Below, piece by piece: positions 6,238-53,943 of a stretch of DNA of 64,000 nt (positions are counted from its first letter, which is position 1; each line of letters opens with the position of its first letter). The notes under the pieces were generated by a model, which saw nothing but the letters and a program-made list of their open reading frames with translations, had not been told where the DNA came from and made no database searches. A program made the translations under genes and the position numbers. This DNA is from Candidatus Gottesmanbacteria bacterium GW2011_GWA2_43_14 (GTDB lineage: Bacteria; Patescibacteriota; Microgenomatia; 2-02-FULL-39-11): contig LCFP01000004.1 in NCBI GenBank assembly GCA_000999095.1, positions 13,429 to 77,428 on the forward strand. The letters run 5' to 3'.

Positions 6238-6363
6238 TATTGTTCTTCAACAACTGTGAAAGTAACACAATAATGTAAGATGAGCATGAAAAATGTAAAG
6301 CAAAAGAAGATCCGGCAAGAATTCTTACCGAATTATTACCGCTTTCTTACTTTATGACCAGCC

Positions 6364-6813
6364 TCACAAAGCGACTGTTACCTGTCCGGTATCTGCAGGG
6401 GATAGGTGGTTATGATAACCCCAAACTCCTTCAGCGTCGAAGGTAAATTTAAACGTGCCTCCCTGACCTACTTTGCTTTTTTGATCAAATTCCGGATAAA
6501 GACGGTGGGTCGGATGGTCGTCGGAAGCAATCCACATATCTTTGCCCGAGTTGTTGGTCCAGCTGACTGTCTCGCCTTTCTTTACGGAAATTTGTTCAGG
6601 AGTAAAACCCCCGGCAGTATATTCGACGGTTTTTTCTTCACCCGCGACCATGCCTTCTCCCGCTACGGCATCAATAATCTCCTGGGGAATGTCAGCTGCT
6701 GTTCCTTTTGTACCCAGGTTTTCGGTAGCAATTTCTGAATCCGTTGCAGTCTTGACCGCCGATCTGTTCCTGCCGGCGGAAATGACTGCCATGATTAAAA
6801 CGGCTATAAGCAA
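6364..6813 (-). CDS. Secreted small beta-sandwich (cupredoxin-like) protein. No Cys ligand is present.
   Basis: N-terminal TM/signal. The C-terminal domain has the pattern GGFTP..ISVKKGETVSWTN...HNH...GQVTV, which looks like a plastocyanin fold but has no cysteine. Confidence 0.3.
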   Translation of the reverse strand: MLIAVLIMAVISAGRNRSAVKTATDSEIATENLGTKGTAADIPQEIIDAVAGEGMVAGEEKTVEYTAGGFTPEQISVKKGETVSWTNNSGKDMWIASDDHPTHRLYPEFDQKSKVGQGGTFKFTFDAEGVWGYHNHLSPADTGQVTVAL

Positions 6814-6883: not shown

Positions 6884-7579
6884 TTATTTTCCGAAACGCC
6901 TTTTTCGGTTATGGTATTCTTTGACTGCTTTCCGGAATTGATCAGGTGTAAAATCCGGCCAATAAACTTTGGTGAAATAAAGTTCGCTGTATTCCGACTG
7001 CCACAGTAAAAAACCGGAGAGCCGCAATTCACCTCCGGTCCTGATGATCAAATCAGGATCAGGCTGCCCGGCAGTATCCAAATTTAAACCTAAGGTCTCA
7101 GGAGTCAGATCCTTTTTTTTACTTTTACCTGACGGGTCTGTTTTAAGCCATTTATTAACTGCCCTGATAATTTCATCTTTGCCGCCGTAGCTTAAGGCCA
7201 AATTTACCGTTATTGCGAGGTTATCTTTTGTTTTTTCCATCCATTTTCTGGTTTTGGCTTTCAAATCGTCTGAAAACCGCTCCAGATCGCCGATACAATT
7301 GATTTTGATTTTTTTGCGGTGGAAACTGTCCACTTTCCGGTCCAACACATGCCGGTAAAGGTTCATTAAAAAATCTATTTCTTTTTTCGGACGATGCCAA
7401 TTTTCCGTGGAAAAAGCCCAAAAGGTCAGATATTTGATCCCCAATTTGATGGCCTCATCAACAATCGGTTCAATTTTCTCTTCCCCCCTCTTATGACCTT
7501 CAAAAATTGGCCTGTTATGTTCTTTCGCCCATCGGCGGTTGCCGTCCATAATTATGGCTACATGCTGCAAATTGACCAT
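6884..7579 (-). CDS. uppS: Undecaprenyl diphosphate synthase (cis-prenyltransferase)
   Basis: HVAIIMDGNRRWAKE and the C-terminal RFG motif, classic for UPPS. Confidence 0.9.
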   Translation of the reverse strand: MVNLQHVAIIMDGNRRWAKEHNRPIFEGHKRGEEKIEPIVDEAIKLGIKYLTFWAFSTENWHRPKKEIDFLMNLYRHVLDRKVDSFHRKKIKINCIGDLERFSDDLKAKTRKWMEKTKDNLAITVNLALSYGGKDEIIRAVNKWLKTDPSGKSKKKDLTPETLGLNLDTAGQPDPDLIIRTGGELRLSGFLLWQSEYSELYFTKVYWPDFTPDQFRKAVKEYHNRKRRFGK

Positions 7580-7583
7580 AAAA

Positions 7584-8561
7584 TTAGAATAAGTGGCGGT
7601 CGGTTAATCTGGTTGCTGGTCCGGGACGGTTAATAATAATATCTTTTATACCTTCTTTTCTTAACAATTGATAGACTTTTGATTGATCAACCTCTCTGCT
7701 TAGCAGATGGAGATTATGCCCGGTATTCAAGCTGAAATAAACTTCCAGACCGGATTTCCGCCAGCTTCTGACTTTGGTCATCAGTTGTATTGTTTCAGGA
7801 TAAAGAAATATATATGATGGTTTACCCGTCATCATGATAGCATGCAGTTCAAATGCTTCAGCTTCCACTAAATTACCGAATTGTTCAAAATCCCTATTTC
7901 TTATGGACTCCTTTATCATTTTTAATTTTTCCGGCAAGAGAATCAGTCTTTCCCGGAAAAAGGGGCTTGTGTCGGCAGATGTCATTGCCAGCGAAGTCGC
8001 TACGGTTTTTTTCCGATTGCTTACAACCGCCACCAAATCAACAATATCCCAATAGTCGGCAGGAAAAACCGATTCGGCAAATGAAGTATGGTGATTCTTG
8101 CCTTTATGCCACTGGACAAACCCTGCGGGGATCGATCGGCAGGATGAACCCGAGGCTAACCTTGAAATAGAAGTCATAACTTTTTCTTCCAATTGAAGCT
8201 CCATTGAGGTAATTCCGGCCAAGGTAAAGGCTGCGAATCCTGAAGCTGAAGACGATAAGCCGGTTCCGACGGGGAAATTATTCTTTGAGACAATTCTGGC
8301 ACGGGTTTTAACTCCTTTTAATGACCTTATGCGTTCCAAATGTTGAATGATGCGCATTTTGGGTCTGCCGGAAGCTTTTTGACCGTCTATTTCCACCTGA
8401 TCAACCGTATAGACTGAAGAAAAATCTACAGTTGTCGTTGTTCTCAAATTATCCAAATTAACGGACAAACTGTCATTTACCGGCAGCCGTAAATTCTCAT
8501 CTTGCAAACCCCAGTATTTGATTAAGGCTAAATTGGAACAGGCCACGGCTGTTTTTTTCAT
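7584..8561 (-). CDS. Diphosphomevalonate decarboxylase family (MVD, or a phosphomevalonate decarboxylase)
   Basis: ACSNLALIKYWG N-terminal motif and GLSSSASG GHMP motif. Confidence 0.8.
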   Translation of the reverse strand: MKKTAVACSNLALIKYWGLQDENLRLPVNDSLSVNLDNLRTTTTVDFSSVYTVDQVEIDGQKASGRPKMRIIQHLERIRSLKGVKTRARIVSKNNFPVGTGLSSSASGFAAFTLAGITSMELQLEEKVMTSISRLASGSSCRSIPAGFVQWHKGKNHHTSFAESVFPADYWDIVDLVAVVSNRKKTVATSLAMTSADTSPFFRERLILLPEKLKMIKESIRNRDFEQFGNLVEAEAFELHAIMMTGKPSYIFLYPETIQLMTKVRSWRKSGLEVYFSLNTGHNLHLLSREVDQSKVYQLLRKEGIKDIIINRPGPATRLTDRHLF

Positions 8562-9535
8562 AAAATCGTTTCTTTCACTCCCTCTAATGTGATTTTGGCC
8601 GGGATAATTTCCCCCCCTGCTGAAAACAAGGCTTTTTTTACAGCTTCCCGATTCTGTTTATCCACCAAGGCAATCAGACAATCCCCTCCCCCGGCGCCGG
8701 AAATTTTAGCCCCGTATGCCCCTGCTTTTCTGGCAGAACCTATTAATTTATTTAATTTGGGTGTTGAGACTCCCAAATCTTCAAGAAAATCCTGATTTAA
8801 ATTCATAAGCTTTCCCGCTTCCGGAAGATCATTCATCATAAGTGATTGCCTGGCATTGATAACCAGCTGGCTTATTTTCTGAAAAATTTTTATCACAGCT
8901 TTTCTATCCTTCTTCATTTTTAGAGACACTTGCCGGATCATGGCTGTGGTATCTGCCTTTCTGCCGGAATAACAAATTACCAGTTCCGGCCGTGCTGTTA
9001 ATTTTTCCGTTAATGATCCTTTTTTATAGTAAATTATACCCCCATTTATAACTGCAGCCAGATCAAAACCGGAAGCTAACCCGTCCACGGATTTTATTGA
9101 CTCAAAAGACATGTCAAACAGCTCCCCTTTGGTTAAATGCAGCTGATACAAGCGCGCTAAAGCTGAAATTGAGGCTGCCGTGGCGGCAGCTGATGATCCG
9201 AGTCCGTAATTAGCGGAAAAAGTAGACTTAATGTCCAAATTGAAACCGGATTTGACTGGAAGTAAGGGGGTTATGGTTTTTATAGCCGATGCCAAATACG
9301 CTGACTGCTTAATCAACATACTGCTGTTAATTTCACTGATGCCGTCTATAATAATTTCCTTAAATAAATCACTCCGGATGACGATTTTAATGTCTTTCCT
9401 CAATTTTACAGTTACCACGAATTTAGTATCGATGGCAGCTGCCAAACAGGGGTAACCGTAAACGGCAGCATGCTCACCTAAGAGCATTAATTTACCGGGT
9501 GAGATGACCGAAATTTTTCTTGGTTTATCAAGCAC
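8558..9535 (-). CDS. GHMP kinase, mevalonate-kinase-like (copy 2). May be mevalonate kinase or phosphomevalonate kinase.
   Basis: LLGEHAAVYG N-terminal motif and GLGSSAAATAA phosphate-binding motif. Overlaps its neighbours as in an operon. Confidence 0.7.
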   Translation of the reverse strand: MLDKPRKISVISPGKLMLLGEHAAVYGYPCLAAAIDTKFVVTVKLRKDIKIVIRSDLFKEIIIDGISEINSSMLIKQSAYLASAIKTITPLLPVKSGFNLDIKSTFSANYGLGSSAAATAASISALARLYQLHLTKGELFDMSFESIKSVDGLASGFDLAAVINGGIIYYKKGSLTEKLTARPELVICYSGRKADTTAMIRQVSLKMKKDRKAVIKIFQKISQLVINARQSLMMNDLPEAGKLMNLNQDFLEDLGVSTPKLNKLIGSARKAGAYGAKISGAGGGDCLIALVDKQNREAVKKALFSAGGEIIPAKITLEGVKETIL

Positions 9536-9541
9536 CTTACT

Positions 9542-10486
9542 TTATCCTTTCTCCAATCTGATACCCTCTTCGCCCAAAATGGCGTTTTCACAAGTTATTT
9601 TTCTTTGCCCGGTAAAGTGATTTATTATTTTTACATCCCTGTGGTAAGCTAAAAGATAACCCGCAGCACCCTTTTTCCCGCCTCCGCCCAGGATCTTGGC
9701 CGCGCCACCGATCTTTTCAATCTGTTTTATGAGAACGGAAACCCGTGTGCTGACTACTCCCATTTTTTCCAAAGTCCGACTGCCTGCTTTAATTGCCCCC
9801 ATAAACTCTGTTTCATCACCTTTTTTTAATGCTTCCGCCAGTTTTTTAGTCTCAAACTCATTCCGGTTGAATAATCGTTCATAAATCCCGGGCTGATTTT
9901 CGCGTCCTTCTCCAACAGCTGCCACCAGATCTTTGGTTGTTTCCTCGGGCTTTCCGGTATCCAAGAGATAAAAATTTCTTAATAGCTTCGTCCTTCTTAC
10001 CGGCAATTGCCAGATGCTCTTAAGATAAGTTAACTCCTTGCGAAACCAGATAATTCCTCCGAAGACAACCGCAGTATTATCAGCTCCGGATGGATTACCG
10101 TGAATAACTTTCTCCGATTCAAAGGCTAACCGGTTGGTGAGTTCCGGGTTCCAAATTTTTTTCAGAAAATAGAGGCACCCGGCAATTACCGCGGCGGCGG
10201 TAGCTGCCGAAGAACCAAGATGGTATCCCTTTTTTAATTGTGAAGTCACTTTTACGGAGAGGGGCGGTATAGATTCAGTCTTTAAATGTTGACTGACCAA
10301 ACTGAGAATGTTCGCGACAAATTGTTTATCCTCAGCTTCAATATGGTGCTCCGAAGACCGGGCCTCTGATACAGTCGCATAAACACGTTTGTTAATCGCC
10401 GCCAGAAGTGCCGGTTTACCGTAAACAACAGCGTGTTCACCCAAAAGGTATATTTTGCCGGGAACTGAAACTGTTATGGAAGCCAT
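9542..10486 (-). CDS. GHMP kinase, mevalonate-kinase-like (copy 1)
   Basis: YLLGEHAVVYGKPAL and HLGSSAATAAAV motifs. Confidence 0.7.
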   Translation of the reverse strand: MASITVSVPGKIYLLGEHAVVYGKPALLAAINKRVYATVSEARSSEHHIEAEDKQFVANILSLVSQHLKTESIPPLSVKVTSQLKKGYHLGSSAATAAAVIAGCLYFLKKIWNPELTNRLAFESEKVIHGNPSGADNTAVVFGGIIWFRKELTYLKSIWQLPVRRTKLLRNFYLLDTGKPEETTKDLVAAVGEGRENQPGIYERLFNRNEFETKKLAEALKKGDETEFMGAIKAGSRTLEKMGVVSTRVSVLIKQIEKIGGAAKILGGGGKKGAAGYLLAYHRDVKIINHFTGQRKITCENAILGEEGIRLEKG

Positions 10487-10489
10487 AAA

Positions 10490-10792
10490 TCAGATTAGTG
10501 GTTTGAATTTAATACCATATGGAATTATGCCTTCATCGCCGGCACTGCGGGTCCTGCGAAGTACTGTCACAACCTTTTGGCCGACGCGCAAGTTTTTTTT
10601 ATCATAATCAACCAGTTGTGCAGTATAACGGCGGCCGCTTTCCAATTTTACGATGGCAACCACGTATGGCGCCTGGCTTTCAAATCCCTGAGGCGGCACA
10701 AAAACCTGGGTGAAACTCACAATGTTGCCGTTTTGGTTGAGAATTTCCCTGATTTTCTTCTGATTGCGCCAAATTTTAACGGGTGAAATCAT
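10490..10792 (-). CDS. DUF35 OB-fold/zinc-ribbon protein, the partner of archaeal-type thiolase and HMG-CoA synthase
   Basis: About 100 aa with an OB-fold pattern, located directly downstream of thiolase and HMGS. This is the conserved archaeal trio arrangement. Confidence 0.55.
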   Translation of the reverse strand: MISPVKIWRNQKKIREILNQNGNIVSFTQVFVPPQGFESQAPYVVAIVKLESGRRYTAQLVDYDKKNLRVGQKVVTVLRRTRSAGDEGIIPYGIKFKPLI

Positions 10793-10797
10793 CCTGC

Positions 10798-11934
10798 TTA
10801 TTTTTTCAGAATATGAATAACTGCTGTTGCTCCGCTGCCCCCGATATTATGGGTTAAACCTAAATCAGCCCCCGGTACCTGTTTTTTGCCTGAAATACCT
10901 TTCAGTTGCTGGTAAACTTCCACCAGCTGTTTAACGCCGGTGGCACCAACCGGGTGACCGGCTGCTTTTAGTCCGCCTGACGTATTGACGACTAGCCTGT
11001 TATTTCCCAGTTGAGTCTTACCCTTTTCTATGGCGCTGGCTGCCTCACCTTTCGGAAAAAAACCAAGATCTTCCATGGCTATGATTTCGGCAATGGAAAA
11101 ACAATCATGGACCTCAGCCACCTTGATATCTTCAGGTTTTACTCCCGCCTCCTGATATGCTTTATTTGAAGCTGAAACAGCAGCTTTCAGCGTGGTTAAG
11201 TCGAGTCTTTGGGCCAAGCCCAGGCTGTCGGTGGCAGCTTGGGAAGCGCTGATTATTATCCCTTTTTTAAGCGGTTTAGATGACAGTATAAGAGCTGCAG
11301 CTCCGTCAGTAATCGGAGAGCAATCCAAAATTTTTAAAGGACTGGCCACCACCGGGCTTTCCATGACCATCTGCCGGGTAATCCTGTTTGTAAACTGGGC
11401 ATGCGAGTTGAGTGAGGCGTGAAAATGATTTTTTACCGAAACCTCGGCCATGGCTGCCTCGGTTGTTCCGTATTTAAGCATATGGGCGCGGGCAATAAGA
11501 GCATAAAGTGCCGGAAAGGTTGCACCTGCCTCACGTTCTCCTTCTGAACCGGCCCCCATAAGAGCCGCTGCCACAGCTTCCGGTTTGTGATCGGTCATTT
11601 TCTCAACTCCCACAACCAGCACGTTTTTATATTGCCCGGATTTAATTGCCAGGTAAGCCAAATGTGCGGCCATCCCCCCGGAAGCACAAGCAGCCTCGAT
11701 TTTTACCGCCGGTACACTTAAACCCAATTCTTCACTGAAAAAAGCCCCGAGATGATCCTGACCGCCTAAAGACGATGAAAGCATATTGCCGACAAAAACG
11801 GCCTCGATTTTATCCAATGCAAACCCGGCTTCATCAGCTGCAGCCAAGGCCACCTCTTTTACTAAATTTCTTGGGGAAACATCCCACAATTCACCGAATT
11901 TGGAAGTAACTCCTGACAATATCGTTACAGGCAT
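10798..11934 (-). CDS. Thiolase (acetyl-CoA C-acetyltransferase), archaeal type
   Basis: Thiolase-fold regions with active-site Cys and His. The protein ends in GGSGATAV, as thiolases do. Confidence 0.8.
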   Translation of the reverse strand: MPVTILSGVTSKFGELWDVSPRNLVKEVALAAADEAGFALDKIEAVFVGNMLSSSLGGQDHLGAFFSEELGLSVPAVKIEAACASGGMAAHLAYLAIKSGQYKNVLVVGVEKMTDHKPEAVAAALMGAGSEGEREAGATFPALYALIARAHMLKYGTTEAAMAEVSVKNHFHASLNSHAQFTNRITRQMVMESPVVASPLKILDCSPITDGAAALILSSKPLKKGIIISASQAATDSLGLAQRLDLTTLKAAVSASNKAYQEAGVKPEDIKVAEVHDCFSIAEIIAMEDLGFFPKGEAASAIEKGKTQLGNNRLVVNTSGGLKAAGHPVGATGVKQLVEVYQQLKGISGKKQVPGADLGLTHNIGGSGATAVIHILKK

Positions 11935-12968
11935 TAAATTTTTCCCCTGAATTTTAAGTAGTCAAGATAACTGATATATTTTTTTCTGTATTGGCGTTCT
12001 TGATAATTTGCTCCATTCCGCTTTTTTCCTGCATTTTTTGTCATGCGTAAAACCAAACCGTCAGAACCGGCGCCCGATCCGTAGGAAACCAGGAAAATCA
12101 AATCGTTTTGCTGCGCCTGGTCCAATGCCGCAGCAAGACCGATCAGCGAAGATGCCGTGTAAGGATTACCTATATCTTTTACTATTAGAGACGCGGCCGT
12201 CTGTTCTTCGGTAAAACCCAGTCTTTTTGCCGCTTCTTTGGGAAACTTGCCGTTGGGCATATGGAAAACGGCAAAACGGAAATCACGGGCTGTAAGTTTG
12301 CTTTTTTCAAAAAGCTGCCTGCCGCAATTTTCCACATGCGAAAAATAAGCTGGTTCACCGGTAAACCTGCCTCCATGACTGGGAAATCGGACGCCGTCCC
12401 TGCGCCAGAAATCAGGAGTGTCGGAAGAATATGAAGTAATTGCCACTATGTCAGCTATAGCTTTATGTTTTGTTCCTAATATAAAAGCTGCCGCTCCTGA
12501 AGCTGCCGTATATTCCAAAATATCGTGGGGTTTGGCCTGAGCGCAATCACTGCCAACAGCCATGGCGGTCGAAAAAGTACCTGATGAAATCATGGCAGCC
12601 AACGAAATCAAAGCCGTCGTGCCGGCTTTACAGGCAAATTCAAGATCAGTAGCCAGGTATGAATGACCAATTCCCAAAAATTCGCCTAAAATAGTCGATG
12701 TAGGATTGACGGCATAGGGATGGCTTTCAGAACCAACCATCAACGCTTCGATTTTGCCGGGATTTATTCCGGCATCAAGTAATGCGTCAAGAGAAGCCTG
12801 GTAAGCCATCGTCACAGCATCTTCATCCATGGCTGCGACCGACTTTTGGCTTATGCCGAGGGATCTCTCAATATCTGAAGCCAGTTTACCCCAAACCGGG
12901 GCAATTTCCGCTGTTTTGATTCTGTAATAAGGTAAATATAGACCGTATCCTAATATGCCTGCATCCAT
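11934..12968 (-). CDS. Hydroxymethylglutaryl-CoA synthase, archaeal type
   Basis: Condensing-enzyme fold with the catalytic Cys in the GxxxCxAG context, and an HMGS-like C-terminus. Lies in the mevalonate operon. Confidence 0.8.
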   Translation of the reverse strand: MDAGILGYGLYLPYYRIKTAEIAPVWGKLASDIERSLGISQKSVAAMDEDAVTMAYQASLDALLDAGINPGKIEALMVGSESHPYAVNPTSTILGEFLGIGHSYLATDLEFACKAGTTALISLAAMISSGTFSTAMAVGSDCAQAKPHDILEYTAASGAAAFILGTKHKAIADIVAITSYSSDTPDFWRRDGVRFPSHGGRFTGEPAYFSHVENCGRQLFEKSKLTARDFRFAVFHMPNGKFPKEAAKRLGFTEEQTAASLIVKDIGNPYTASSLIGLAAALDQAQQNDLIFLVSYGSGAGSDGLVLRMTKNAGKKRNGANYQERQYRKKYISYLDYLKFRGKI

Positions 12969-12987
12969 CTTGCTGATTTAAATATTT

Positions 12988-14136
12988 TTACTTGCCTCCT
13001 CTGGCAAGCAATCGGTGTGCCTTACCCAAACTTCCTGCGGCTATAGCTGACAATAAAGAAATTTCCCCGGCTAAAACAGCACCTCCAATAATTTCCGCAA
13101 ACTGTTGCGCTCTTTTGCCGGAGTCCCCTCCGGCTGATCCCAAAAGTAACAAGCTGGCCTTTTGTGAAGGCAGATATGTGCCTCCGCCAATCGTACCTAC
13201 GGGAAGATCCGGTAGATAAATACTGACCAATAGCTTTCCGTTTACGAATTTGGTCGAGGTTATACCCAAGCTTCCTTCGCTGACATGGGCGATATCCTGT
13301 CCGGTAGCCAGAAAAATAGCCGCGATAATATTGGCAAAATGTGCGTTAAATCCCAGAGAAGCGCTTATCATCGAACCCTTCAGATTTTTTTCCAGATTTA
13401 CCTCATGAATAAGCTCGGGAGTCGTTTTCAATATATGCCTGACTGTTTGCTTATCCAATAGTGTTTCTGCCCAAACCTCACGGCCGCGGCCAAGAAGAAA
13501 ATTTAAAAAAGAAGGCTTCTTATCGGTATCGAAATTAGCCGCCACAGCCAAACACTTAAAACCTGTATCGTTCTCAACCATGCGGATAATAGCTTCAGTT
13601 GCGAAAGTCACCATGTTCATACCCATCGCATCTTCCGTATCATAGCTGAATCTGATATACACATTAGTACCGAAATACTTGATAAACGTCCCGTTTAACC
13701 GCAAATGACCGGAGGTTTGTTCAGCTACAGCTTGCATCTTTGTAAAATTTTTACCCAACCACTCCTTAAGTTTCCTGCTTTCAATAATTCCTCCTGTTAT
13801 AAAAAGTGAGCCTCTGGTAATACCGGTATTTTCACTAGTCACCCGGACGCCCCCGGCTCTAGTTATTGCTTTACAGCCACGATTTACCGAAGCCACCAAA
13901 GCTCCTTCTGTTGTTGCCAGCGGCAGATAATACTCACTCATACCGTTGTCTCTGATAATTTTTAAAGGCCCGGCAATCCCTATTGGGACTTGGACCGCAC
14001 CGACCATATTTTCACAGTTCTTTTCTTCTGCCTGAGAAAAGCCAGGCGGATAAAAAGCATAATCAACCAGGGAAAGACCTGTTTTTTTCTCTAAATACTG
14101 GCGTCTTTTTTCTATTGTTTTTATCTTTCTTAGCAT
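12988..14136 (-). CDS. HMG-CoA reductase, class I
   Basis: DAMGMNMV catalytic motif, GTIGGGT and ENxIG-like motifs. About 382 aa. Confidence 0.85.
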   Translation of the reverse strand: MLRKIKTIEKRRQYLEKKTGLSLVDYAFYPPGFSQAEEKNCENMVGAVQVPIGIAGPLKIIRDNGMSEYYLPLATTEGALVASVNRGCKAITRAGGVRVTSENTGITRGSLFITGGIIESRKLKEWLGKNFTKMQAVAEQTSGHLRLNGTFIKYFGTNVYIRFSYDTEDAMGMNMVTFATEAIIRMVENDTGFKCLAVAANFDTDKKPSFLNFLLGRGREVWAETLLDKQTVRHILKTTPELIHEVNLEKNLKGSMISASLGFNAHFANIIAAIFLATGQDIAHVSEGSLGITSTKFVNGKLLVSIYLPDLPVGTIGGGTYLPSQKASLLLLGSAGGDSGKRAQQFAEIIGGAVLAGEISLLSAIAAGSLGKAHRLLARGGK

Positions 14137-14138
14137 AA

Positions 14139-14759
14139 TTAAATAAAGGGTATCCGGAAAATTCCTGATTTATATAAAATGAAGCTGTAAATAAAGACTA
14201 CCGGTACTATCAAAAGTTGTGTTAGGCAAATCCTGGCCAGGTCAAGTTTCAACCCGAAACGGAGTGTTAAATAATACAGAATAAGTTTCCAGGACAATAA
14301 AGTCAACGAATAGGTTATAAAAATTATACTCAGGATACCTCCCGGGACTGACCAGGTCCTTGGGGGAGGAATAAGTCGGTACAATAAAGCAGTTGCTATA
14401 AACCAAAGAAGTGTCGGCCATAAACTATAACTCCAAAGAACAGTAAGACGTAAAAGGCTGAAATTGCCCACTTGCCAAAGCTTGCCGGTCAGATAAAACA
14501 AAAAAAGCATCAGGATAATGCCTCCGGCCGTCCCGAACAGCAATAGGTTAAACCTGACTGTAAGCAGGTAGGGGTTTTCCATGCCCAATCTGATTATCGA
14601 GCTTGATAAAAAGAAAAAGATTACAAGCAGATAAATATAAATTGTTTGCTGGGTGAAAATTTTATCCCCGTGCGCCAGGTGACGGTAGGTATGGTAGGGC
14701 TCCTTGATTATACCGAAGCTGTTGCGCAGGAAAAAAACAAATGATGTAATCGGCCTCAT
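14139..14759 (-). CDS. Polytopic membrane protein, unknown function
   Basis: Several hydrophobic helices. Co-directional and overlapping with the sigma/anti-sigma pair. Confidence 0.4.
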   Translation of the reverse strand: MRPITSFVFFLRNSFGIIKEPYHTYRHLAHGDKIFTQQTIYIYLLVIFFFLSSSIIRLGMENPYLLTVRFNLLLFGTAGGIILMLFLFYLTGKLWQVGNFSLLRLTVLWSYSLWPTLLWFIATALLYRLIPPPRTWSVPGGILSIIFITYSLTLLSWKLILYYLTLRFGLKLDLARICLTQLLIVPVVFIYSFILYKSGIFRIPFI

Positions 14760-14998
14760 GGATAAAAAGCTCCCAGCTGGAGAATGGAGGCCAGTCTGAT
14801 GAGATAGGAGCCAAAAACAATAAAAGCGATAAAAGTCGCTGCCAGAGATAGAAAAACAAGACTTTTTAACGGGTATTCCTTGAAAACGGGTACGATCCTT
14901 TTATAAAGAGGAGTAAAAAGACCCATTTGCTGAGGCGGCACAAAAGCAATTTCCTGCATTTTGGCTACCATCATACGATACAGTTTGTCATTCTCCAT
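14756..14998 (-). CDS. Putative single-pass anti-sigma factor. Start chosen at MENDK; the ORF track extends it to 15109.
   Basis: Small protein with a cytoplasmic N-terminus and one TM helix, immediately downstream of the sigma factor and overlapping its stop by about 11 nt. Confidence 0.3.
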   Translation of the reverse strand: MENDKLYRMMVAKMQEIAFVPPQQMGLFTPLYKRIVPVFKEYPLKSLVFLSLAATFIAFIVFGSYLIRLASILQLGAFYP

Positions 14999-15551
14999 AA
15001 GCGTAATATGAGGCAAAGGCCTTCCTGGCCCGGAAAAGCTGGCTTTCCGCACTTTTAAAGGTAATTGAAAGTTTTTCAGCAATTTCTTCAACTGAATAGC
15101 CGTAAACATATTTCAGCTTTAAAATTACCTGATAGGTAGGCGTCAATTTCCTGAAAGTCTGTTTAATCCTTTGCTTCAGGATTTCTTCATCCAGTATTTC
15201 CTCGGGACCGAAAATGGTAGAAAGTAATGGTTCGAAGCCTTCAAATTTCGAAAAAACGATTTTTTGAATTTTTTTCCTGCGGTAAAAATCAATGATTTTA
15301 TGGTTGGCAATTGAACAAACAAATGTAAACAGGGAGCATTTAAAGGAAAAGTCCCTCAAAGCCTCAATCGTTGCCAAAAGCGAATCCTGGAGGATTTCCT
15401 CGATGTCTTCTTTTGTGTTAATTTTTTTACTGATATAAGTATAAAGCGAAGGGTGATATTTCTTATAAAAACTGGTCAGGGCAGCCTCATCACCCCTGAG
15501 GATTTGATATACAATCTTTCTTTCAGTTTTAAGGTCGGGGCTTCTTTTCAT
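14988..15551 (-). CDS. RNA polymerase sigma-70 family (ECF-type) sigma factor
   Basis: Region 2 (HPSLYTYISKK...DIEEILQDSLL) and a region 4 helix-turn-helix (YGYSVEEIAEKLSITFKSAESQLFRARK). Confidence 0.75.
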   Translation of the reverse strand: MKRSPDLKTERKIVYQILRGDEAALTSFYKKYHPSLYTYISKKINTKEDIEEILQDSLLATIEALRDFSFKCSLFTFVCSIANHKIIDFYRRKKIQKIVFSKFEGFEPLLSTIFGPEEILDEEILKQRIKQTFRKLTPTYQVILKLKYVYGYSVEEIAEKLSITFKSAESQLFRARKAFASYYAYGE

Positions 15552-15652: not shown

Positions 15653-15961
15653 ATGCAGCTGGCCCAGGTTTCAATTGCAGAAAAATATCCACCGGCGAAA
15701 AACTTCCCCACACTCGCCTCTATCATTTCCTCATTCTTACCGAATCTGTTGATCATTGCCGGGGTTATATTTTTCATTCTGACGATTGTCGCGGGCTTCG
15801 TGGTCATCTCTACTGCCGGCCAGGGCGATCCCCACGGTGCGGAACGGGCAAAGTCTTTTCTTACTTATTCCGTTATCGGACTTTTCCTGATTTTTGCTTC
15901 ATACTGGATTTTACAGATAATTAATTACATTTCATTCGGTTCCATGAAAGGATTATTCTGA
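15653..15961 (+). CDS. Small two-helix membrane protein, pilin-like paralog 1 (VirB2/TrbC-like)
   Basis: Layout is TM helix, then AGQGDP, then a second TM helix. It shares the GGD(P/K) core with the three downstream paralogs. Confidence 0.5.
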   Translation: MQLAQVSIAEKYPPAKNFPTLASIISSFLPNLLIIAGVIFFILTIVAGFVVISTAGQGDPHGAERAKSFLTYSVIGLFLIFASYWILQIINYISFGSMKGLF

Positions 15962-16311
15962 TGGCTCTTCCGGCAGATGTGATTGGCAAAATTTCTCCCC
16001 TACCCGGCATGCCGGTCGGCATAAACCCCACCACGGGTGAACTGACGGGCCTCGTCACCATGATGAATGTCATCCTCCGGCTTCTTCTGATCGTGGGGGG
16101 GATTTGGGCATTGTTCAACATCGTCTTAGCCGGCATGGGTTTTATAGGTGCCGGCGGAGATCCGAAAAAAGTGGCTTCCTCCTGGGCTAAAATCTATTGG
16201 TCCTTTATCGGCTTGCTTATCATGGTTTCCGCCTTTCTCCTGGCAGCCATAATCGGTATCATGCTCTTCGGCAACCCGACAGCCATTTTATCTCCCAAAC
16301 TGACAAAATGA
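15961..16311 (+). CDS. Pilin-like paralog 2 (VirB2/TrbC-like)
   Basis: FIGAGGDPKKVASSWAKIYWSFIGLLIMV flanked by hydrophobic helices. Start and stop overlap with the neighbouring paralogs. Confidence 0.55.
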   Translation: MALPADVIGKISPLPGMPVGINPTTGELTGLVTMMNVILRLLLIVGGIWALFNIVLAGMGFIGAGGDPKKVASSWAKIYWSFIGLLIMVSAFLLAAIIGIMLFGNPTAILSPKLTK

Positions 16312-16742
16312 TATTGATATTTTTGTTCATTTCAATTCTTCTTTTTCAATCCCCTCCCTCTGTTTATGCTGCTCCCAGCAATTGTCTGGGGGGCGGTGAA
16401 GGGTTGGGACCGTTTGCCAAATTCCTTTGCGGAGGCGTAGGAGTGACGACTGATGCCGTCGGCAACAGACTCAACTCTGTCATCAGCGCTATCCTGGGCT
16501 TATTAACTGTTATAGCCGGTTTATGGTTTCTGATCCAGTTTATTCTCGCCGGTTTTAATTGGATCAATGCCGGAGGAGACAAGAATAATGCCCAGGCGGC
16601 CTGGCAGAAAATGACCAATGCCGTTGTCGGACTCATTATAGTCGTTTTTGCCTGGGTATTTGTGGCTTTGATCGGTAAACTGCTCAATATAAATATCCTT
16701 GATCCCGGAGATATGTTAAAAAATTTAAAAATAACAGGCTAA
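16308..16742 (+). CDS. Pilin-like paralog 3, carrying a cleavable signal peptide and a Cys pair. Start chosen at MILIFLF.
   Basis: The signal peptide ends VYA-AP. Then CLGGGEG..FLCGG, a TM helix, NWINAGGDKNNAQAAWQKM, and a second TM helix. ATGA overlap with paralog 2. Confidence 0.55.
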   Translation: MILIFLFISILLFQSPPSVYAAPSNCLGGGEGLGPFAKFLCGGVGVTTDAVGNRLNSVISAILGLLTVIAGLWFLIQFILAGFNWINAGGDKNNAQAAWQKMTNAVVGLIIVVFAWVFVALIGKLLNINILDPGDMLKNLKITG

Positions 16743-17093
16743 ATGGAAAAAGTATTGCTGGCACAAATTAAAAATCCGGTTGTACCGAGCTTAAAAAATC
16801 CCAATAATGCTCCGCAAATTATCGGCAAATTTTTTGCCGGGTTTGTGGCATTACTGCTGATTGTCGCTACCCTCTGGTCTTTTTTTAATCTGATTTTGGG
16901 AGCATTTAACTGGATTTCCTCAGGAGGGGACAAGGGCAAACTGGAAACCGCCCAACAGAAGATGCTGCAGGCGGTAATCGGGTTAATCCTGGTTTTTGCT
17001 TCATGGGCAATTTTTATCGTGCTACTCCAGTTTTTGGGATTGTCTCAGGGTCTGGGAGGTAAAATCGAGTTTAAACTACCTACGCTTCTTTAA
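16743..17093 (+). CDS. Pilin-like paralog 4 (VirB2/TrbC-like)
   Basis: NWISSGGDKGKLETAQQKMLQAVIGLILVFASW between two hydrophobic helices. It begins immediately after the stop of paralog 3. Confidence 0.55.
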   Translation: MEKVLLAQIKNPVVPSLKNPNNAPQIIGKFFAGFVALLLIVATLWSFFNLILGAFNWISSGGDKGKLETAQQKMLQAVIGLILVFASWAIFIVLLQFLGLSQGLGGKIEFKLPTLL

Positions 17094-25422: not shown

Positions 25423-25707
25423 TTAAGATTTATTTTTTTTTACGGAGTATACTTCAAGGGATTTTCTGACTTCATCAAGCGATTCCTTCGACTCCGTCTC
25501 AGACAGTTTTTGCATCAGTTCATGAATCAGGCGGGTTTTCACTTCTTCAATGTCATTGGCATTGTATTTTCTTTTCCCAGCTTTCACTTCATCCAGAATG
25601 TGAATTTTTTCCAATGCTAGTTGAGCATGATATTTTTCAGTAATAAATGACCAGGCTTTTTGTGATAACTCAAGCTTGTCCCCCTCACTGACATAATCAA
25701 TATTTTC
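25423..25707 (-). CDS. Small hypothetical protein. Start shortened to avoid an 80-nt overlap.
   Basis: ORF only; charged helical sequence. Confidence 0.25.
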   Translation of the reverse strand, partial: ENIDYVSEGDKLELSQKAWSFITEKYHAQLALEKIHILDEVKAGKRKYNANDIEEVKTRLIHELMQKLSETESKESLDEVRKSLEVYSVKKNKS

Positions 25708-28700
25708 CATGAGCTGTTTGATTTGCTCTCCCGGAAAATTGGCTACTTTTAACAATACCGGTAATGATATGGCCATAATGTTGTGTAGGTGATATTTTTA
25801 AAATATCGGCAAATCCCGAACTGAGGCGGCCCCTGACTGGGTCAACAAAATAAACATTTAGCTCACCGTTATCAAACTTAACCTCAAATCCGTCCTGGTT
25901 AAAATCAGTAAATTTGTTCTGCAAGTGCCTTATTCTATCTGACACGTTCATCATGCTGATCCCCTGAGCGACCTCGAACAAGAAATTTCTCGTCAGATTT
26001 CTTGTTGAATCAACATGATTAAACAGATTTACCAATTGATTTAGATCCGCTATTTGAGTGGGGTCTCTCTTGAAAATTATGTTTTGTATTTCCGAGGGAT
26101 CTTTTCTGGTACCGTCAGCTTTATAAATCAGTTCCAATACGCCGGGAGGATAGCCTCCGGCGGCTGTTGCAGCAGCCCGGTCAACAGCAAGGGATGAAAT
26201 AAAATTATTGATTTCAACTACCGTCCTTCTCTTATCGGCGGTCAATTCATAAAAGAGCGCCTGCAGTTCTGGACTGGCTCCGATAAAACTTTCCCTTTCA
26301 TAGGGTAATACCGCCGGATTGAATGCCCCCAAACCGGTAATTATATCGGCTAAATCTTTCTTGCCGTCGGCAGTATTAGGACCATATATAATATTTATTA
26401 ATTCAGGTGGTAAACCAGCGTTTTCTGCCGACTCTCTATTTGTGTACGTTATACTGTCAAGAACAGCCTGGTCAAAATCAGCCGGATTGGTCGCAGCTTT
26501 TCTCCTGAATTCGTTTCCATAAGCTAAATAAACTAACTCATCCGGTATATTTGGCTGAAGATCGCTGGGTAATAAATTAATAGTAGACTGTTCTTTCCTC
26601 AGGTTCAAAGTTAAATTTAACCCGCCAATAGGCTCCGTATTGTCAATACCGAGATTTACCGATATCCCGGAATTGCCGATATTTTCCTCAATAATAGGAC
26701 CCCGTTCTATCAGAGCTCCTGTCCGTTCATTTTTATTCATTTCAGTTATGCTGATCGGACCGTGATCAGTAGTAAATGTTTCCGTCTTCGGACCGGCGGT
26801 GGAAACAGTCAGAAGTTCATTAAAAGGATTGCCTTTAATGGCATCCTTAGAAATCTCAATAAGGGTTTTACTTATTACCTGTGCTGTGGAGACTCTGTCC
26901 TGGGCTAAAAGGGATGCCAGCCTGGTATCATAGAGAATCGAAAGTGAATCATTTAATTCTATCTGTATGTTGTTAAGCTGCCGGCGCAAATCTCTTACCT
27001 GGTCTTCCCATCCGTCTGCTTTACCTTTTTCAATATTGGATACTTGCTCTGTAAGTCCAGCGATTTCCTGCTTGATTGATTGACTGTCCTGGTAGGCCTG
27101 CAATCCTGCCGAGTCTCCGGCAAAGAAGGCGTTCGGAGTTGCCCTGTTTTCCAGATTCCAGACACTCATAATTGCTTCTGCCAGTCTGCCTTTGCTTAAT
27201 ATTCTCGAAGTCAAATTATAATTACCGTTTACCCCCTGACTTAAAGCATCTATGCCGAATATTCTTTTTAAAAGAAGACTATAACCTTCATCGCTTAATG
27301 TTTTTGCTAAATCTTCGATCTTAATATTGCCGCTGATAATATCATTGATTAATTCATTAAATTTGTCCGAATTAAAAATTTCACTCTCGACGAGTTTTTG
27401 TAAGCCCCGTTCAGTTTCCTTATCTTCATCACTGACAACCAGAGCTTCACCTGCTTCTTTTCTCTCTCTTAATTTTTTCAGTTCCGCTTCTAATTTAGTT
27501 ACTTTATCGGCAGTTTCTTTGGCGATATCTCCTATTTTCTCTGTAGAAGGCGCGGTAAATCCTGGAATAGTTACATCAAATCCGAAAACCTCCTGTAATA
27601 ATTGATTTCTTTTACGGATTAATGCGTCCAATTTATCTTTTTCACTCTTATATTCTAATCTGGCTGTTTCAATCTCGTTTTTCTTTGTTTCAATTTGATC
27701 TCTCAAGTTATCTAATGTTCCTCCGCTTTTCTCAAAAATAGCTATTTCCTGTTTTACATTATTTATTTCATTTCCAAGCGAGTTATAACTTTCTTCTAAA
27801 GATTCTCTTCTTTCGGTTAATGGAGTTAGTGCATTCTCAGCAGCTTTGGCACCCCTTGGGTCGACATCACTATCTAAAATAGCAATTTTATCAATTATCT
27901 CTTGTTTTCTAGAATCGGTATCAGGTATCAAATCAAGGGGAATAAGCTTTAATCGCTGTAATTCTTCAGACCGCTCAGCCAGTATTTTTTCCGTTCCAGC
28001 TTCTATCTTTTTGGCCGCCTTTAATTCACCACCGATTTGTTTCTGGTCACCAATAATACCCGTATATAAACCGGTTGCCTGTTTTTCTCCAAGATGACTT
28101 TTTAAGAAGGTGATTCTATCTTCTGCTGTTTTTATTTTAGCTTCAATTGTTCCTATTTCGCCTGTAGCTTTTTTAGCTCCTGCTGATTGTTTTCCTTTTG
28201 TCGTTTTGGCAGAATCCCAAGCATCTTTTTTGGAAGTTGCAGTACTTTCTTGAGTTGTAATATCTGTTAGTAATTGGGTATAGCTTTCCTTGGAAGTGGT
28301 TTGTCTCTCGCGGCGGGCTGTTTCAGTTGAAAGTTCATGTTCCTTATTTTCAAGCGTAATCGGGGATTCTTTGGGGTGAAGTACCCGAGCGCCTGATAAT
28401 ATATCTTTTGCTAATTTTTCAAGTTGGCTAGTAATTCCCTCTTCCAATGGTTCTCCTCTGGCTCGGGCGATCATGACTTTTTTGATAATCGGCGCCAGAG
28501 TTTCACCGCCCTCGACCTGGGAAATGGTATCGAAAGCCTTAGTCACCACTTTTACCCTGTCTTCCAGTTCCAATTCTCCCAATTCTTTGTGTCCCCCTGC
28601 TTCTCTTTTATATTCCTGCTCCAAAATCTGCTGGATTTTTTTGGCAAGTCTGATTCGGTGGCGCATTTCCGTCCCCTGAGCCGCTTCTCCCAACACCCTG

Positions 28701-30028
28701 TCGCTCAAATCCATCCAGCCGGCCAGAGTTTCAGGAGAATGGAAATAAAACCCGTTTGCTAGATCCGACCTAAAATCTTCGCACTTTTGCAGAAAAAGTC
28801 CGGCTTCATCACCTTTACCTTGAAAAAGTTGCCTGATAGGATTTTCCGTATCACCAATATCCCGCAGAGCCGGATCGTGAAGATTACCTGGATTAAATGA
28901 CAGAGTAAATCTTGTCGCTCTTTCGGGCTGGCCGCCTTCAGGAATTTTAAACCACCAGCTTCTGATTCTCCTTGTTGTAGCTCGATAAACAAAAGTTGCC
29001 AATAATCCGCCGCCTGCTCCAATCAGCGTATCTAACCTGCCCGCGATTGAAGGATCAACCATACTGCCTAATATACTGTTAGAGTATATATCGTTAAATG
29101 CACCGACATAGGCTCCTCCTCCAGTCATGATCGCAATTCCTGCCCAATCCCAAAAATCATCCCAGTTATTCAAGGCAACCCTTCTACCAATATCCTTATA
29201 TGCTGCAATTTTTCTCGGATCGGTCTCTTTTTCAACAAGTTTACTAATTTGTTGATCGGACATATCTATAGTTATATCCCTGGTACCACCAGTAGTAAGA
29301 TCATAGCCTAACTGATAGGAAATGCTTTTTTCCGCCTGTTCGGCAAACTGATAGACATACATGAGTTCATCGACAGTTTCGAAAATATGCTGGTCTTCTT
29401 TGTTTACATATGCCTGAAGCCTTTTCTCGATATCTTCATTGCTGACGCCATACCATTTATACTGCTGACGGATTTCCTGTATTAATGCTAACTTTTTATT
29501 ATTATCAGCCTCCGGTAATGATAAAACTGAACTGATTCTCTCTTTTCTTTTTTTAATGTCTTTCTCCAATCCTGGACTTCCTGTCCTCTTATACCTTATA
29601 AACTGTCTCTTCTTCTGATCTACTAATGCCTCCCAAGCCCCCGCCCAGTCTCCTTTTAATTCCTCCAGGAGCTTTAAATCATCCTGGTCCATTTTCAAAA
29701 GAATCAGATCCTGCGCTCTTTTATCCCAATAAGGAAATCTTTCCTTGATAACTTCGGCCATCTGACTTAAATCCTTGCCGGTATGTGGATTTTCCAGGAC
29801 TCCGTACAATGTTTCGAGCACATTGTAAGCGTTGTATTCCTGCGAAAGATTCAGCCTGGCTTTAGTATGGCCTGTTATTCCCAATTCCGGCTTGTTGGCA
29901 AGAGGATTAACACCACCGATTTCCCATTTACCATAAACTGAACTGCGAAGCTGTTTATCCTGACTTCCAGAATTATTAACTCTTTGTGCCGGTCCTGTTG
30001 GAGTGATGTCCGGAGCGGTATCTGACAT
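25697..30028 (-). CDS. Giant protein (1443 aa), coiled-coil rich with a glycine-rich hydrophobic segment. No recognisable enzymatic motif.
   Basis: Uninterrupted 4.3-kb ORF. The central part is heptad-like. A hydrophobic Gly-rich stretch lies at about residues 300-350. Confidence 0.55.
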   Translation of the reverse strand: MSDTAPDITPTGPAQRVNNSGSQDKQLRSSVYGKWEIGGVNPLANKPELGITGHTKARLNLSQEYNAYNVLETLYGVLENPHTGKDLSQMAEVIKERFPYWDKRAQDLILLKMDQDDLKLLEELKGDWAGAWEALVDQKKRQFIRYKRTGSPGLEKDIKKRKERISSVLSLPEADNNKKLALIQEIRQQYKWYGVSNEDIEKRLQAYVNKEDQHIFETVDELMYVYQFAEQAEKSISYQLGYDLTTGGTRDITIDMSDQQISKLVEKETDPRKIAAYKDIGRRVALNNWDDFWDWAGIAIMTGGGAYVGAFNDIYSNSILGSMVDPSIAGRLDTLIGAGGGLLATFVYRATTRRIRSWWFKIPEGGQPERATRFTLSFNPGNLHDPALRDIGDTENPIRQLFQGKGDEAGLFLQKCEDFRSDLANGFYFHSPETLAGWMDLSDRVLGEAAQGTEMRHRIRLAKKIQQILEQEYKREAGGHKELGELELEDRVKVVTKAFDTISQVEGGETLAPIIKKVMIARARGEPLEEGITSQLEKLAKDILSGARVLHPKESPITLENKEHELSTETARRERQTTSKESYTQLLTDITTQESTATSKKDAWDSAKTTKGKQSAGAKKATGEIGTIEAKIKTAEDRITFLKSHLGEKQATGLYTGIIGDQKQIGGELKAAKKIEAGTEKILAERSEELQRLKLIPLDLIPDTDSRKQEIIDKIAILDSDVDPRGAKAAENALTPLTERRESLEESYNSLGNEINNVKQEIAIFEKSGGTLDNLRDQIETKKNEIETARLEYKSEKDKLDALIRKRNQLLQEVFGFDVTIPGFTAPSTEKIGDIAKETADKVTKLEAELKKLRERKEAGEALVVSDEDKETERGLQKLVESEIFNSDKFNELINDIISGNIKIEDLAKTLSDEGYSLLLKRIFGIDALSQGVNGNYNLTSRILSKGRLAEAIMSVWNLENRATPNAFFAGDSAGLQAYQDSQSIKQEIAGLTEQVSNIEKGKADGWEDQVRDLRRQLNNIQIELNDSLSILYDTRLASLLAQDRVSTAQVISKTLIEISKDAIKGNPFNELLTVSTAGPKTETFTTDHGPISITEMNKNERTGALIERGPIIEENIGNSGISVNLGIDNTEPIGGLNLTLNLRKEQSTINLLPSDLQPNIPDELVYLAYGNEFRRKAATNPADFDQAVLDSITYTNRESAENAGLPPELINIIYGPNTADGKKDLADIITGLGAFNPAVLPYERESFIGASPELQALFYELTADKRRTVVEINNFISSLAVDRAAATAAGGYPPGVLELIYKADGTRKDPSEIQNIIFKRDPTQIADLNQLVNLFNHVDSTRNLTRNFLFEVAQGISMMNVSDRIRHLQNKFTDFNQDGFEVKFDNGELNVYFVDPVRGRLSSGFADILKISPTQHYGHIITGIVKSSQFSGRANQTAHGKY

Positions 30029-36557: not shown

Positions 36558-36717
36558 TACCTCCTAGTAAACCATTTTTTCAAGGATGCTGTCAATCCCA
36601 ATTCTGACTTTCATATTGTTACTGTTTTCACAAAATTTAATCCAGTTTAGTAGTATTTTGAGCATTAATGCATTAGTTGCAAGGTAATTTTTCACATTTT
36701 AACCTAGATTTAGCCCT

Positions 36718-37998: not shown

Positions 37999-38022
37999 TC
38001 ATTTATAATAATCTATAGTATT

Positions 38023-38694: not shown

Positions 38695-38700
38695 TAACTT

Positions 38701-40644: not shown

Positions 40645-40653
40645 TAAAAAGGT

Positions 40654-43155: not shown

Positions 43156-43354
43156 GTTCTTTTTACCTATTTCTTATATATTTCTTACAGTAATAGTAGT
43201 ATTAGAAAGCGTTGATAAGTGTAGTGAATTTAACTCTTACAGTCAAGAAGCTCCAAATTGTTAATTTTTCCCTGTGTATATCAGGGTAATAACAGTGTGA
43301 ATTCTTATGTGGATAGCTGTTCATTTTATGTGGATAAGTTGTTATCTTTTTGTT
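43156..43354. promoter_or_regulatory. Candidate oriC: an AT-rich dnaA-dnaN intergenic region carrying DnaA boxes
   Basis: A perfect TGTGGATAA (reverse complement of TTATCCACA) at 43329-43337. One-mismatch boxes at 43308-43316 and 43365-43373. The surrounding sequence is AT-rich. Confidence 0.45.
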
Positions 43355-53940: not shown

Positions 53941-53943
53941 GAC

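Follow-up and report, generated by a model that had tools for sequence, protein, structure and literature searches.

A mevalonate gene cluster that includes a linked cis-prenyltransferase was described in bacteria of the candidate phyla radiation (CPR) by Hoshino & Gaucher (Mol Biol Evol 2018; PMC6107057), who named its extra kinase 'PMVK' and its decarboxylase 'DPMD' on phylogeny alone and whose text reports that none of the CPR pathway had been characterised; we found no later biochemical work on this pathway in the literature. Here we analyse a 64,000-nucleotide stretch (referred to below as the window) from the genome of Candidatus Gottesmanbacteria bacterium GW2011_GWA2_43_14, a CPR organism of the Microgenomates (contig LCFP01000004.1, positions 13,429 to 77,428). 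Between positions 6884 and 14136 of the window, on the minus strand and thus read from 14136 to 6884, lie eight genes that encode, in order of transcription, an HMG-CoA reductase (HMGR), an HMG-CoA synthase (HMGS), a thiolase, a DUF35 protein, two GHMP-family kinases (which we call K1 and K2), a decarboxylase and the undecaprenyl-diphosphate synthase UppS. This operon is the published CPR cluster. It shares with the cluster set out in that report the archaeal AACT, HMGS, HMGR-I, mevalonate kinase (MVK), second GHMP kinase and DPMD homologue. It also agrees with that cluster in host lineage and in its synteny with cis-IPPS, and the genome itself comes from the 2015 Rifle set; the window maps to a groundwater scaffold of 191.8 kb. 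IDI-I, an isopentenyl diphosphate (IPP) isomerase, is part of the reported set, whereas the window's operon has none, and neither do the 84 kb or so made up of the window plus 10 kb beyond either end. Since the cluster was described in 2018, the headline of the finding is known, and the novelty that an earlier reading of the window from its letters (the original prediction) saw in such an operon 'in a bacterium' has to be given up. What is unreported is a set of residue-level variants: the main text of PMC6107057 holds no discussion of the Asn that replaces a catalytic Asp in the decarboxylase, of a variable Lys in the same enzyme, or of the motifs and basic insertion of K1.

Two described lower pathways offer the closest comparison. 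In the classical pathway, MVK, a GHMP-type phosphomevalonate kinase (PMK) and a mevalonate diphosphate decarboxylase (MDD, also called diphosphomevalonate decarboxylase or DMD) are encoded by three GHMP-superfamily genes in a row, as in mvaK1-mvaD-mvaK2 of Gram-positive cocci. The same three reactions are predicted for the window, and most relatives of its decarboxylase have the Lys of DMDs, or an Arg, at the relevant position; the window differs in that its second kinase is an MVK paralogue outside the PMK families, in that its decarboxylase is without the MDD-invariant Asp and Lys, and in that its upper enzymes are archaeal-type rather than thiolase II, bacterial HMGS and class II HMGR. In Chloroflexi, as reported by Dellas 2013 and Thomas 2019, a phosphomevalonate decarboxylase (PMD, or MPD) with Asn at the Lys position, a diagnostic His and the catalytic Asp is found alongside an isopentenyl phosphate kinase (IPK) of the AA_kinase type and one GHMP kinase, whereas the window has Leu, Met and Asn at these positions, two kinases and no IPK nearby. 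The absence of the DMD Lys is thus a feature that the window shares with the pathway of Haloarchaea and Chloroflexi, but the absence of the PMD His is not. Whichever of phosphorylation and decarboxylation comes first, IPP would be reached with the same three proteins at an equal ATP cost, so that gene content alone cannot settle the order, and the argument for an order rests on residues and on the gene association seen at one archaeal locus (L011, below).

The reading we consider probable is that the window encodes the classical order, with K2 as MVK, K1 as a non-canonical PMK and the decarboxylase as an Asn-variant DMD, followed by UppS. Under this proposal the upper-half enzymes would make mevalonate from acetyl-CoA, and K2 would make mevalonate 5-phosphate (MVAP). 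K1, a duplicate of MVK and not a PMK of the ERG8 or Gram-positive type, would act as the phosphomevalonate kinase, and the decarboxylase, with Asn in place of the catalytic Asp, would convert mevalonate 5-diphosphate (MVAPP) to IPP. UppS would then use IPP for the undecaprenyl carrier lipid, with an IPP isomerase (IDI) and a primer-supplying trans-prenyltransferase presumably encoded elsewhere in the genome. The support for this reading comes from the complementary distribution of K1 and IPK among related loci, from the presence of Lys or Arg at the DMD-Lys position in 102 of the 120 nearest homologues of the decarboxylase, from the precedent of the D281N mutant described below, from the conserved residues and basic insertion of K1 and its score to a Listeria PMK homologue, from the identification of K2 as MVK, from locus L011, from the conserved synteny and from the identity of the operon with the published cluster.

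Gene identities were assigned from Pfam and NCBIfam hidden Markov model (HMM) scores, each held against the cutoff of its model. Both kinases carry the MVK-type motif GEHA(V/A)VYG (LLGEHAVVYG in K1 and LLGEHAAVYG in K2), and neither reaches the cutoff of any PMK model; with the PMK model TIGR01220 (cutoff 166) K1 scores 63 bits and K2 90 bits. K2 (325 aa with a GTG start, 8558..9535, minus strand) scores 207 bits with the MVK model TIGR00549, above its cutoff of 163, and its top matches in the PDB are archaeal MVKs (122-126 bits, 1e-35). The single MVKs of Chloroflexi, which are encoded beside PMD and IPK, also score higher to K2 than to K1. On these scores K2 is an MVK orthologue, and we reject it as the candidate PMK.

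K1 (314 aa, 9542..10486, minus strand) matches GHMP_kinases_N and scores 159.9 bits with TIGR00549, slightly below the cutoff, and 46 bits with Arch_PMK (cutoff 500). A public protein of Candidatus Gottesmanbacteria GW2011_GWA2 that is 100% identical to K1 is annotated 'mevalonate kinase'. When the K1 family is scored as a profile against PDB and NCBIfam entries it gives 83-109 bits to MVKs vs 28 bits to the PMK of S. pneumoniae, a result that speaks to MVK-likeness only. The score of K1 to a Listeria PMK homologue is 60 bits, and 86 with the family profile, where the M. mazei MVK gives 25 bits to the same protein. In a neighbour-joining tree K1 was nested within the MVK radiation, and a split joining K1 to the PMKs appeared in 0/100 bootstraps; the tree is distance-based, its distances are saturated and its references are limited to two PMKs and two MVKs, and the missing K1+PMK grouping is all that we take from it. 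The view of the original prediction that both kinases are MVK-like and that neither is an ERG8 or Gram-positive-type PMK is borne out by these comparisons. We conclude that K1 is, as far as its sequence goes, a CPR-specific paralogue derived from MVK that never groups with Firmicute PMKs.

The residues of K1 indicate what such a paralogue might do. Lys11, His18, Ser93, Ser133, Asp136 and Thr184 are invariant in 138/138 sequences of the family, and Glu17, Ser92 and Glu125 are kept in at least 136 of the 138. Motif III contains a two-residue, family-specific insertion after the Gly loop, GGGG(K/R)(K/x), which is basic in 91% of members; MVKs, and K2 with them, have GAGG--GD at this site. On this pattern K1 is a constrained kinase that we predict to be active. 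Because all of the catalytic and mevalonate-contact residues of MVK are retained, the substrate of K1 probably keeps the mevalonate skeleton, and the basic insertion would fit a more anionic substrate; phosphomevalonate combines both features, and we infer that it is the substrate of K1. A classical route that runs on distantly related kinases has a precedent in another bacterial lineage, namely the divergent MVK and PMK of Flavobacterium johnsoniae, a bacterium that had been thought to lack them (Hayakawa et al. 2017, as cited in PMC6107057). We also note that at one CPR locus with a rearranged operon (L035, 1901-2887) the K1 slot is occupied by a very divergent kinase that has a PMK-like 'GEY' together with the same motif III insertion (GAGSHRGGAG), and for which the sole HMM match is a weak, MVK-like one (87 bits).

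The decarboxylase (325 aa, 7584..8561, minus strand) belongs to the family of ATP-dependent DMDs and PMDs, and scores 242 bits with TIGR01240 (cutoff 171) and 193 with the PMD model NF040704 (cutoff 475). Its closest solved relative is the PMD of Anaerolinea thermophila (PDB 6N0X), at 229 bits and about 45% identity, and the MDD of S. epidermidis (SeMDD) follows at 185 bits. The A. thermophila enzyme and that of the window are alike in having Arg at the position equivalent to Ile27, in the stretch GSGSACRSIP and in having no DMD Lys. Aligned with the wild-type 6n0x, an engineered form, 6n0z, shows just two differences, N to K and H to M, and these fall on the Lys and His positions by which PMC11052028 tells PMD from DMD. 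That paper reports that two mutations shift a PMD toward DMD specificity and that Chloroflexota enzymes have dual activity.

The original prediction had pointed to such specificity residues as a way of telling DMD from PMD, and in the window both diagnostic residues are missing: the DMD Lys, which contacts the terminal phosphate (SeMDD K21), is replaced by Leu19, and the PMD-diagnostic His is replaced by Met (the position of SeMDD M196). At the six positions compared in Table 4 of Dellas et al. (SeMDD Y18, K21, I27, S139, S141 and S192), MDDs have Y, K, a variable residue, S, S and S; Chloroflexi MPDs have Y, L, R or T, A, S and T; and the decarboxylase of the window has Y, L, R, S, S and T. 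We surveyed both diagnostic positions in the 120 nearest homologues (P0121-P0240). The DMD-Lys position is occupied by K in 72, by R in 30 and by L, V, Q, T or I in the remaining 18, and the PMD-His position by Q in 90, H in 21, M in 8 and L in 1.

A third position sets this clade apart. The catalytic Asp (D283 in SeMDD, D281 in the DMD of Sulfolobus, SsoDMD) is Asn279 in the window, within the motif FSLNTGHN, and Asn is present here in 119 of the 120 nearest homologues. In the reference alignments of Dellas et al. the Asp is kept in all bacterial MDDs, Sulfolobales DMDs, haloarchaeal PMDs, Thermoplasmata homologues and Chloroflexi MPDs, with both the Asp and the Lys invariant in 24/24 bacterial MDDs, and the literature describes the Asp as conserved in all DMD, PMD and mevalonate bisphosphate decarboxylase (MBD) enzymes. 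It is also present in more distant CPR enzymes (loci L013, L017, L019, L023, L031, L037 and L039). According to PMC9254496, SsoDMD D281N keeps DMD activity while D281T and D281V become 3-kinases, and Asn is therefore compatible with decarboxylation.

A neighbour-joining tree with 100 bootstraps places the CPR decarboxylases, the Anaerolineae-type PMDs and the classical DMDs in one supergroup (97% support) that leaves out the Roseiflexus-type, haloarchaeal and Thermoplasmata homologues, the last of which, at about 20% identity, stand furthest away. Distances here are saturated too, and the supergroup is the only feature of this tree that we use. Inside it the CPR enzymes joined the DMDs in 20/100 bootstraps and the Anaerolineae PMDs in 12/100. 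The textbook outcome that had been set against the original prediction, in which one kinase would cluster with canonical PMKs and the decarboxylase with classical MDDs, is thus not what the trees return. We conclude that the decarboxylase clade is, judged from its sequences, evolutionarily between the PMDs of Chloroflexi and the classical DMDs, and we predict that its member in the window is a diphosphomevalonate decarboxylase of the Asn variant. An AlphaFold model of the enzyme, built from a 13-sequence alignment, has a pLDDT of 68, with values below 50 in the active-site segments, and is too poor to use.

Gene content across related loci also bears on the role of K1. Our comparison set consisted of relatives on long contigs together with 24 CPR loci from named genomes. 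Most of the related CPR loci that we examined show the order HMGR-HMGS-THL-DUF35-K1-K2-DEC-(IDI)-UppS, which is therefore not a chance arrangement. In relatives a NUDIX gene is often inserted in the operon, and IDI is present in 14 of the 24 related loci (verified as IDI-1 in one of them, L003). In agreement with the original prediction, neither an IDI or other NUDIX gene nor an IPK of the AA_kinase type is present in the window, and the same is true of the 10 kb beyond either end; a trans-prenyl synthase is likewise absent from these 84 kb or so. A profile made from verified Chloroflexi IPKs found no IPK-like ORF in the 24 CPR loci. Chloroflexi loci, by comparison, have no K1 and encode a decarboxylase of the Y-N-R-...-H-D type alongside MVK and an IPK that was verified (adjacent in 11 loci), whereas CPR loci have a decarboxylase with K or R together with K1 and have no IPK nearby. 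Two CPR loci, L021 and L024, have no adjacent K1.

The association that we find most telling comes from locus L011, which is labelled 'archaeon' and looks archaeal by context, with an AMMECR1 neighbour. At 9752-11802 it encodes an Asn-type decarboxylase of the CPR-like clade, 48% identical to that of the window, and the decarboxylase gene is overlapped by, and translationally coupled to, a kinase gene whose product scores 115 bits with Arch_PMK, 110 with the Gram-positive PMK model, 57 with ERG8 and 72 with the MVK model. No K1 or K2 is found within 10 kb at this locus. The pairing therefore suggests that, in the absence of K1, the decarboxylase clade operates with a PMK, and it is the strongest single argument that K1 would fill the PMK role and that the decarboxylase would use the diphosphate.

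Several observations weigh against the classical order. K1 scores higher with MVK models than with any PMK model and has the MVK 'GEH' motif in place of the PMK 'GEY'. The nearest solved relative of the decarboxylase is a proven PMD, and CPR decarboxylases average 44% identity to Anaerolineae PMDs vs 36% to classical DMDs. The window's enzyme has Leu19 for the DMD Lys, and its Arg25 and a Thr are listed as MPD-like by Dellas et al. The Lys position is recurrently changed in the clade (18/120), and seven members have the full PMD pattern of no Lys together with His, although the two of these whose loci were inspected still have K1. Loss of the Lys shows no correlation with gene content: the Lys-less variants are scattered, and both inspected loci keep K1. 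As far as the searchable literature shows, there is no assay of any enzyme of this clade. With neither diagnostic residue present in this genome's decarboxylase, there is real uncertainty about the order.

We have therefore weighed what else the lower half of the operon might do. In general terms, a non-textbook lower pathway is conceivable in which the Asn-variant decarboxylase acts on MVAP, or on both MVAP and MVAPP, and K1 phosphorylates isopentenyl phosphate (IP), or both MVAP and IP. We hold this to be unlikely. If it were true, K1 would represent a novel way of carrying out the IPK step, by a GHMP-type enzyme, and the system would be a living intermediate in the transition from PMD to DMD.

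A more specific proposal, to which we give a slightly smaller chance still, is that the decarboxylase has dual or intermediate specificity and takes both MVAP and MVAPP, so that flux is split between a branch through K1 as PMK and a branch through IP that either an IPK from elsewhere in the genome or a promiscuous K1 would complete. The ambiguous placement of the CPR clade between PMDs and DMDs within the 97% supergroup is what this proposal would lead one to expect, as are the mixed signatures of the clade, since several Asp-type CPR enzymes have both the Lys and the His and the window has neither. It would also accommodate the IPK that Hoshino & Gaucher report in some CPR genomes that have the full set (PMC6107057), and it draws on the dual activity of Chloroflexota enzymes and on the two-mutation shift (PMC11052028), which corresponds to the N to K and H to M changes of 6n0z. 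However, neither the window nor the 24 CPR loci examined contain an IPK, the strong conservation of K1 suggests one dominant route, and promiscuity is not readable from sequence.

We are more doubtful that the order is reversed outright, with the decarboxylase acting as a PMD that converts MVAP to isopentenyl phosphate and K1 acting as a GHMP-family IP kinase that replaces the amino-acid-kinase-type IPK. K1 retains His18, Ser133 and Thr184, which hold the mevalonate moiety in MVKs, but isopentenyl phosphate is without the carboxylate and the 3-OH; for a kinase that adds its phosphate to a phosphate group, MVAP and IP would both be conceivable substrates in principle. We know of no GHMP-type IP kinase. 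The reversed order would account for Leu19 at the position of the DMD Lys, for a PMD (that of A. thermophila) being the nearest solved relative, for the Arg25 and Thr that are MPD-like according to Dellas et al., and for the way in which K1 and IPK are complementary between sister decarboxylase groups, with no IPK within about 84 kb. Set against this, the PMD His is replaced by Met here, most members of the clade have Lys or Arg, and one member of the clade (that of L011) is paired with a canonical PMK. The combination of a PMD with an IPK that the original prediction had raised loses ground on similar evidence: there is no IPK nearby, and what the comparisons favour is the classical order, K1 being a putative non-canonical PMK.

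It is improbable that K1 lies off the main path altogether, whether as a regulatory subunit, as an additional MVK isozyme or as a kinase of a different substrate, with an unlinked IPK or PMK finishing the pathway. The best model for K1 is indeed the MVK model, with a score (159.9 bits) slightly below its cutoff, its public label is 'mevalonate kinase', and loci L021 and L024 do without an adjacent K1; but K1 has a fixed slot beside K2 in most operons, its catalytic residues are invariant, its motif III has changed in a family-specific way and reduced CPR genomes would rarely retain redundant isozymes. Least plausible by far is a Thermoplasma-type route, also suggested in the original prediction, in which a mevalonate 3-kinase (M3K) would be followed by a 3-phosphate 5-kinase and a bisphosphate decarboxylase: the decarboxylase is without the catalytic Asp, as in M3K, but the M3K model NF040848 gives 28 bits (cutoff 440) and the MBD model NF040847 45 bits (cutoff 560), the operon encodes a bona fide MVK and a single DMD homologue, where two are needed, the Thermoplasmata homologues are the most distant, and Asn, unlike Thr or Val, is reported to retain decarboxylation in SsoDMD, so that we reject this route on the model scores, the MVK and the single homologue. 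The archaeal route through anhydromevalonate phosphate was also rejected, as neither the aconitase-X (AcnX) family nor the UbiD/UbiX families occur among precomputed Pfam matches for the genes across the same 84 kb or so.

The upper half of the operon is archaeal in character, as the original prediction had it. HMGR (382 aa, 12988..14136, minus strand) matches PF00368 with an E value of about 2e-110 and is of class I, the NADPH type (411 bits with TIGR00533 vs 52 with the class II model TIGR00532). HMGS (344 aa, 11934..12968, minus strand) scores 449 bits with NF003274 (cutoff 244) and 380 with TIGR00748, HMG_CoA_syn_Arc (cutoff 353), against only 105 with the bacterial model TIGR01835. The acetoacetyl-CoA thiolase (378 aa, 10798..11934, minus strand) has Thiolase_N and Thiolase_C_1 domains and scores 446 bits with NF004720 (cutoff 420). 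The DUF35 protein (100 aa, 10490..10792, minus strand) matches PF01796 over residues 20-77 (E = 1.5e-13). Relatives with inspected gene calls have a gene of ~100 aa at this position, and other full operons have a DUF35-like ORF there. We conclude that the thiolase, HMGS, DUF35 and class I HMGR make up what is, by its predicted functions, an archaeal-type upper half; the label 'archaeal-type operon' thus applies to this half, but the lower half is not archaeal-type.

In Methanothermococcus, a thiolase, HMG-CoA synthase and DUF35 protein reportedly form a channeling complex, in work attributed to Vögeli et al. in 2018. The window shares with that archaeal system the adjacent genes for an archaeal-type thiolase, HMGS and DUF35 protein; by analogy, its three proteins may form a similar complex. 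The archaeal partner has a zinc ribbon and an OB fold, whereas the 100-aa protein of the window consists of the OB domain only and contains no cysteine, and therefore no zinc ribbon. A recent transfer of the operon from archaea was considered and rejected, as composition is uniform across the window and the synteny is CPR-wide.

The eight co-directional genes are as tightly packed as originally described: all of the ORFs are present in the order given, their HMM scores are strong, and they are spaced by -4 to +19 bp, with the start of the thiolase gene overlapping the stop of the HMGS gene by 1 bp and the genes for K2 and the decarboxylase overlapping by 4 bp. The last of them encodes UppS (a cis-prenyltransferase of 231 aa, 6884..7579, minus strand), which matches PF01255 with E = 1.5e-81 and scores 270 bits with TIGR00055 (cutoff 109). 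Upstream of HMGR, at 14139-15551 and in the same direction, lie genes for an ECF-type sigma factor with Sigma70_r2 and Sigma70_r4_2 domains (14988-15551, minus strand), a small ORF and a 206-aa membrane protein (14139-14759, minus strand), joined by 2-bp and overlapping junctions; the gap between the membrane protein gene and HMGR is 2 bp. These genes may belong to the same transcription unit as the mevalonate genes. The top promoter-like site of the minus strand is found ahead of the sigma gene (15623-15595, 11/12 positions matched). Downstream of UppS is a gene for a 149-aa protein with no Pfam match (6310..6813, minus strand), after which the top terminator-like hairpin of the minus strand (6333-6310, a 10-bp stem with a T-rich tail) may mark the end of the unit. 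Both the promoter-like site and the hairpin are consensus matches only. In 13 CPR loci, sigma-factor genes of one sequence cluster occur no more than 10 kb from the decarboxylase gene, and in the loci with inspected gene calls they lie immediately 5' of HMGR. The upstream sigma factor suggests that the mevalonate operon is under regulation of the envelope-stress type. Scans of the window for tRNAs and Rfam families found nothing.

We note several other features of the window and its surroundings. Small genes resembling type IV secretion system (T4SS) pilins, and a block of PrgI, TraC-like and VirB4-TraG-like genes, are found on the plus strand at 15653-17093 and 36718-42087, and similar pilin genes flank the mevalonate operon at CPR locus L005. 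Genes for dnaN and dnaA, then rnpA and yidC, occupy 42046-44728 (minus strand), and the cumulative GC skew has its minimum of about -1.20 at about 40-44 kb, which is probably the region of the replication origin. A ClpB/ClpC-like gene at 32653-36693 (minus strand) is split into two overlapping ORFs of 619 and 699 aa in different frames; a public re-assembly of this scaffold has a single 1346-aa product, with DNA that differs there, so that a frameshift or an indel of the assembly probably explains the split. A homologue of the RuBisCO large subunit (49748-51136, plus strand) is found near DeoC-like, PfkB, ROK, SIS and hexokinase genes at 51995-58384, a context of nucleoside and sugar salvage often seen in CPR genomes. 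Very large ORFs without a Pfam family are present at 25697-30028 (minus strand, 1443 aa), 58412-62350 (plus strand, 1312 aa) and 30106-31962 (plus strand, 618 aa). In the 10 kb past the right end of the window (L089, 1-3219) are genes of the tryptophan branch (anthranilate synthase components, TrpD and IGPS), which is notable for a reduced CPR genome.

Lastly, the labels given to the lower half of this cluster matter beyond the locus. Its 'PMVK' is an MVK paralogue, and its 'DPMD' is nearer to proven PMDs than to classical DMDs, and arguments that a eukaryote-type pathway is of LUCA age, or was present in the bacterial ancestor, lean on these labels (PMC6107057; questioned in PMC11052028). A natural clade with Asn at a supposedly conserved Asp is moreover a natural experiment on whether the residue serves as catalytic base, and one that agrees with the continued activity of SsoDMD D281N. 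The contrast between CPR and Chloroflexi fits a history in which a PMD evolved into a DMD while a PMK arose by duplication of MVK.

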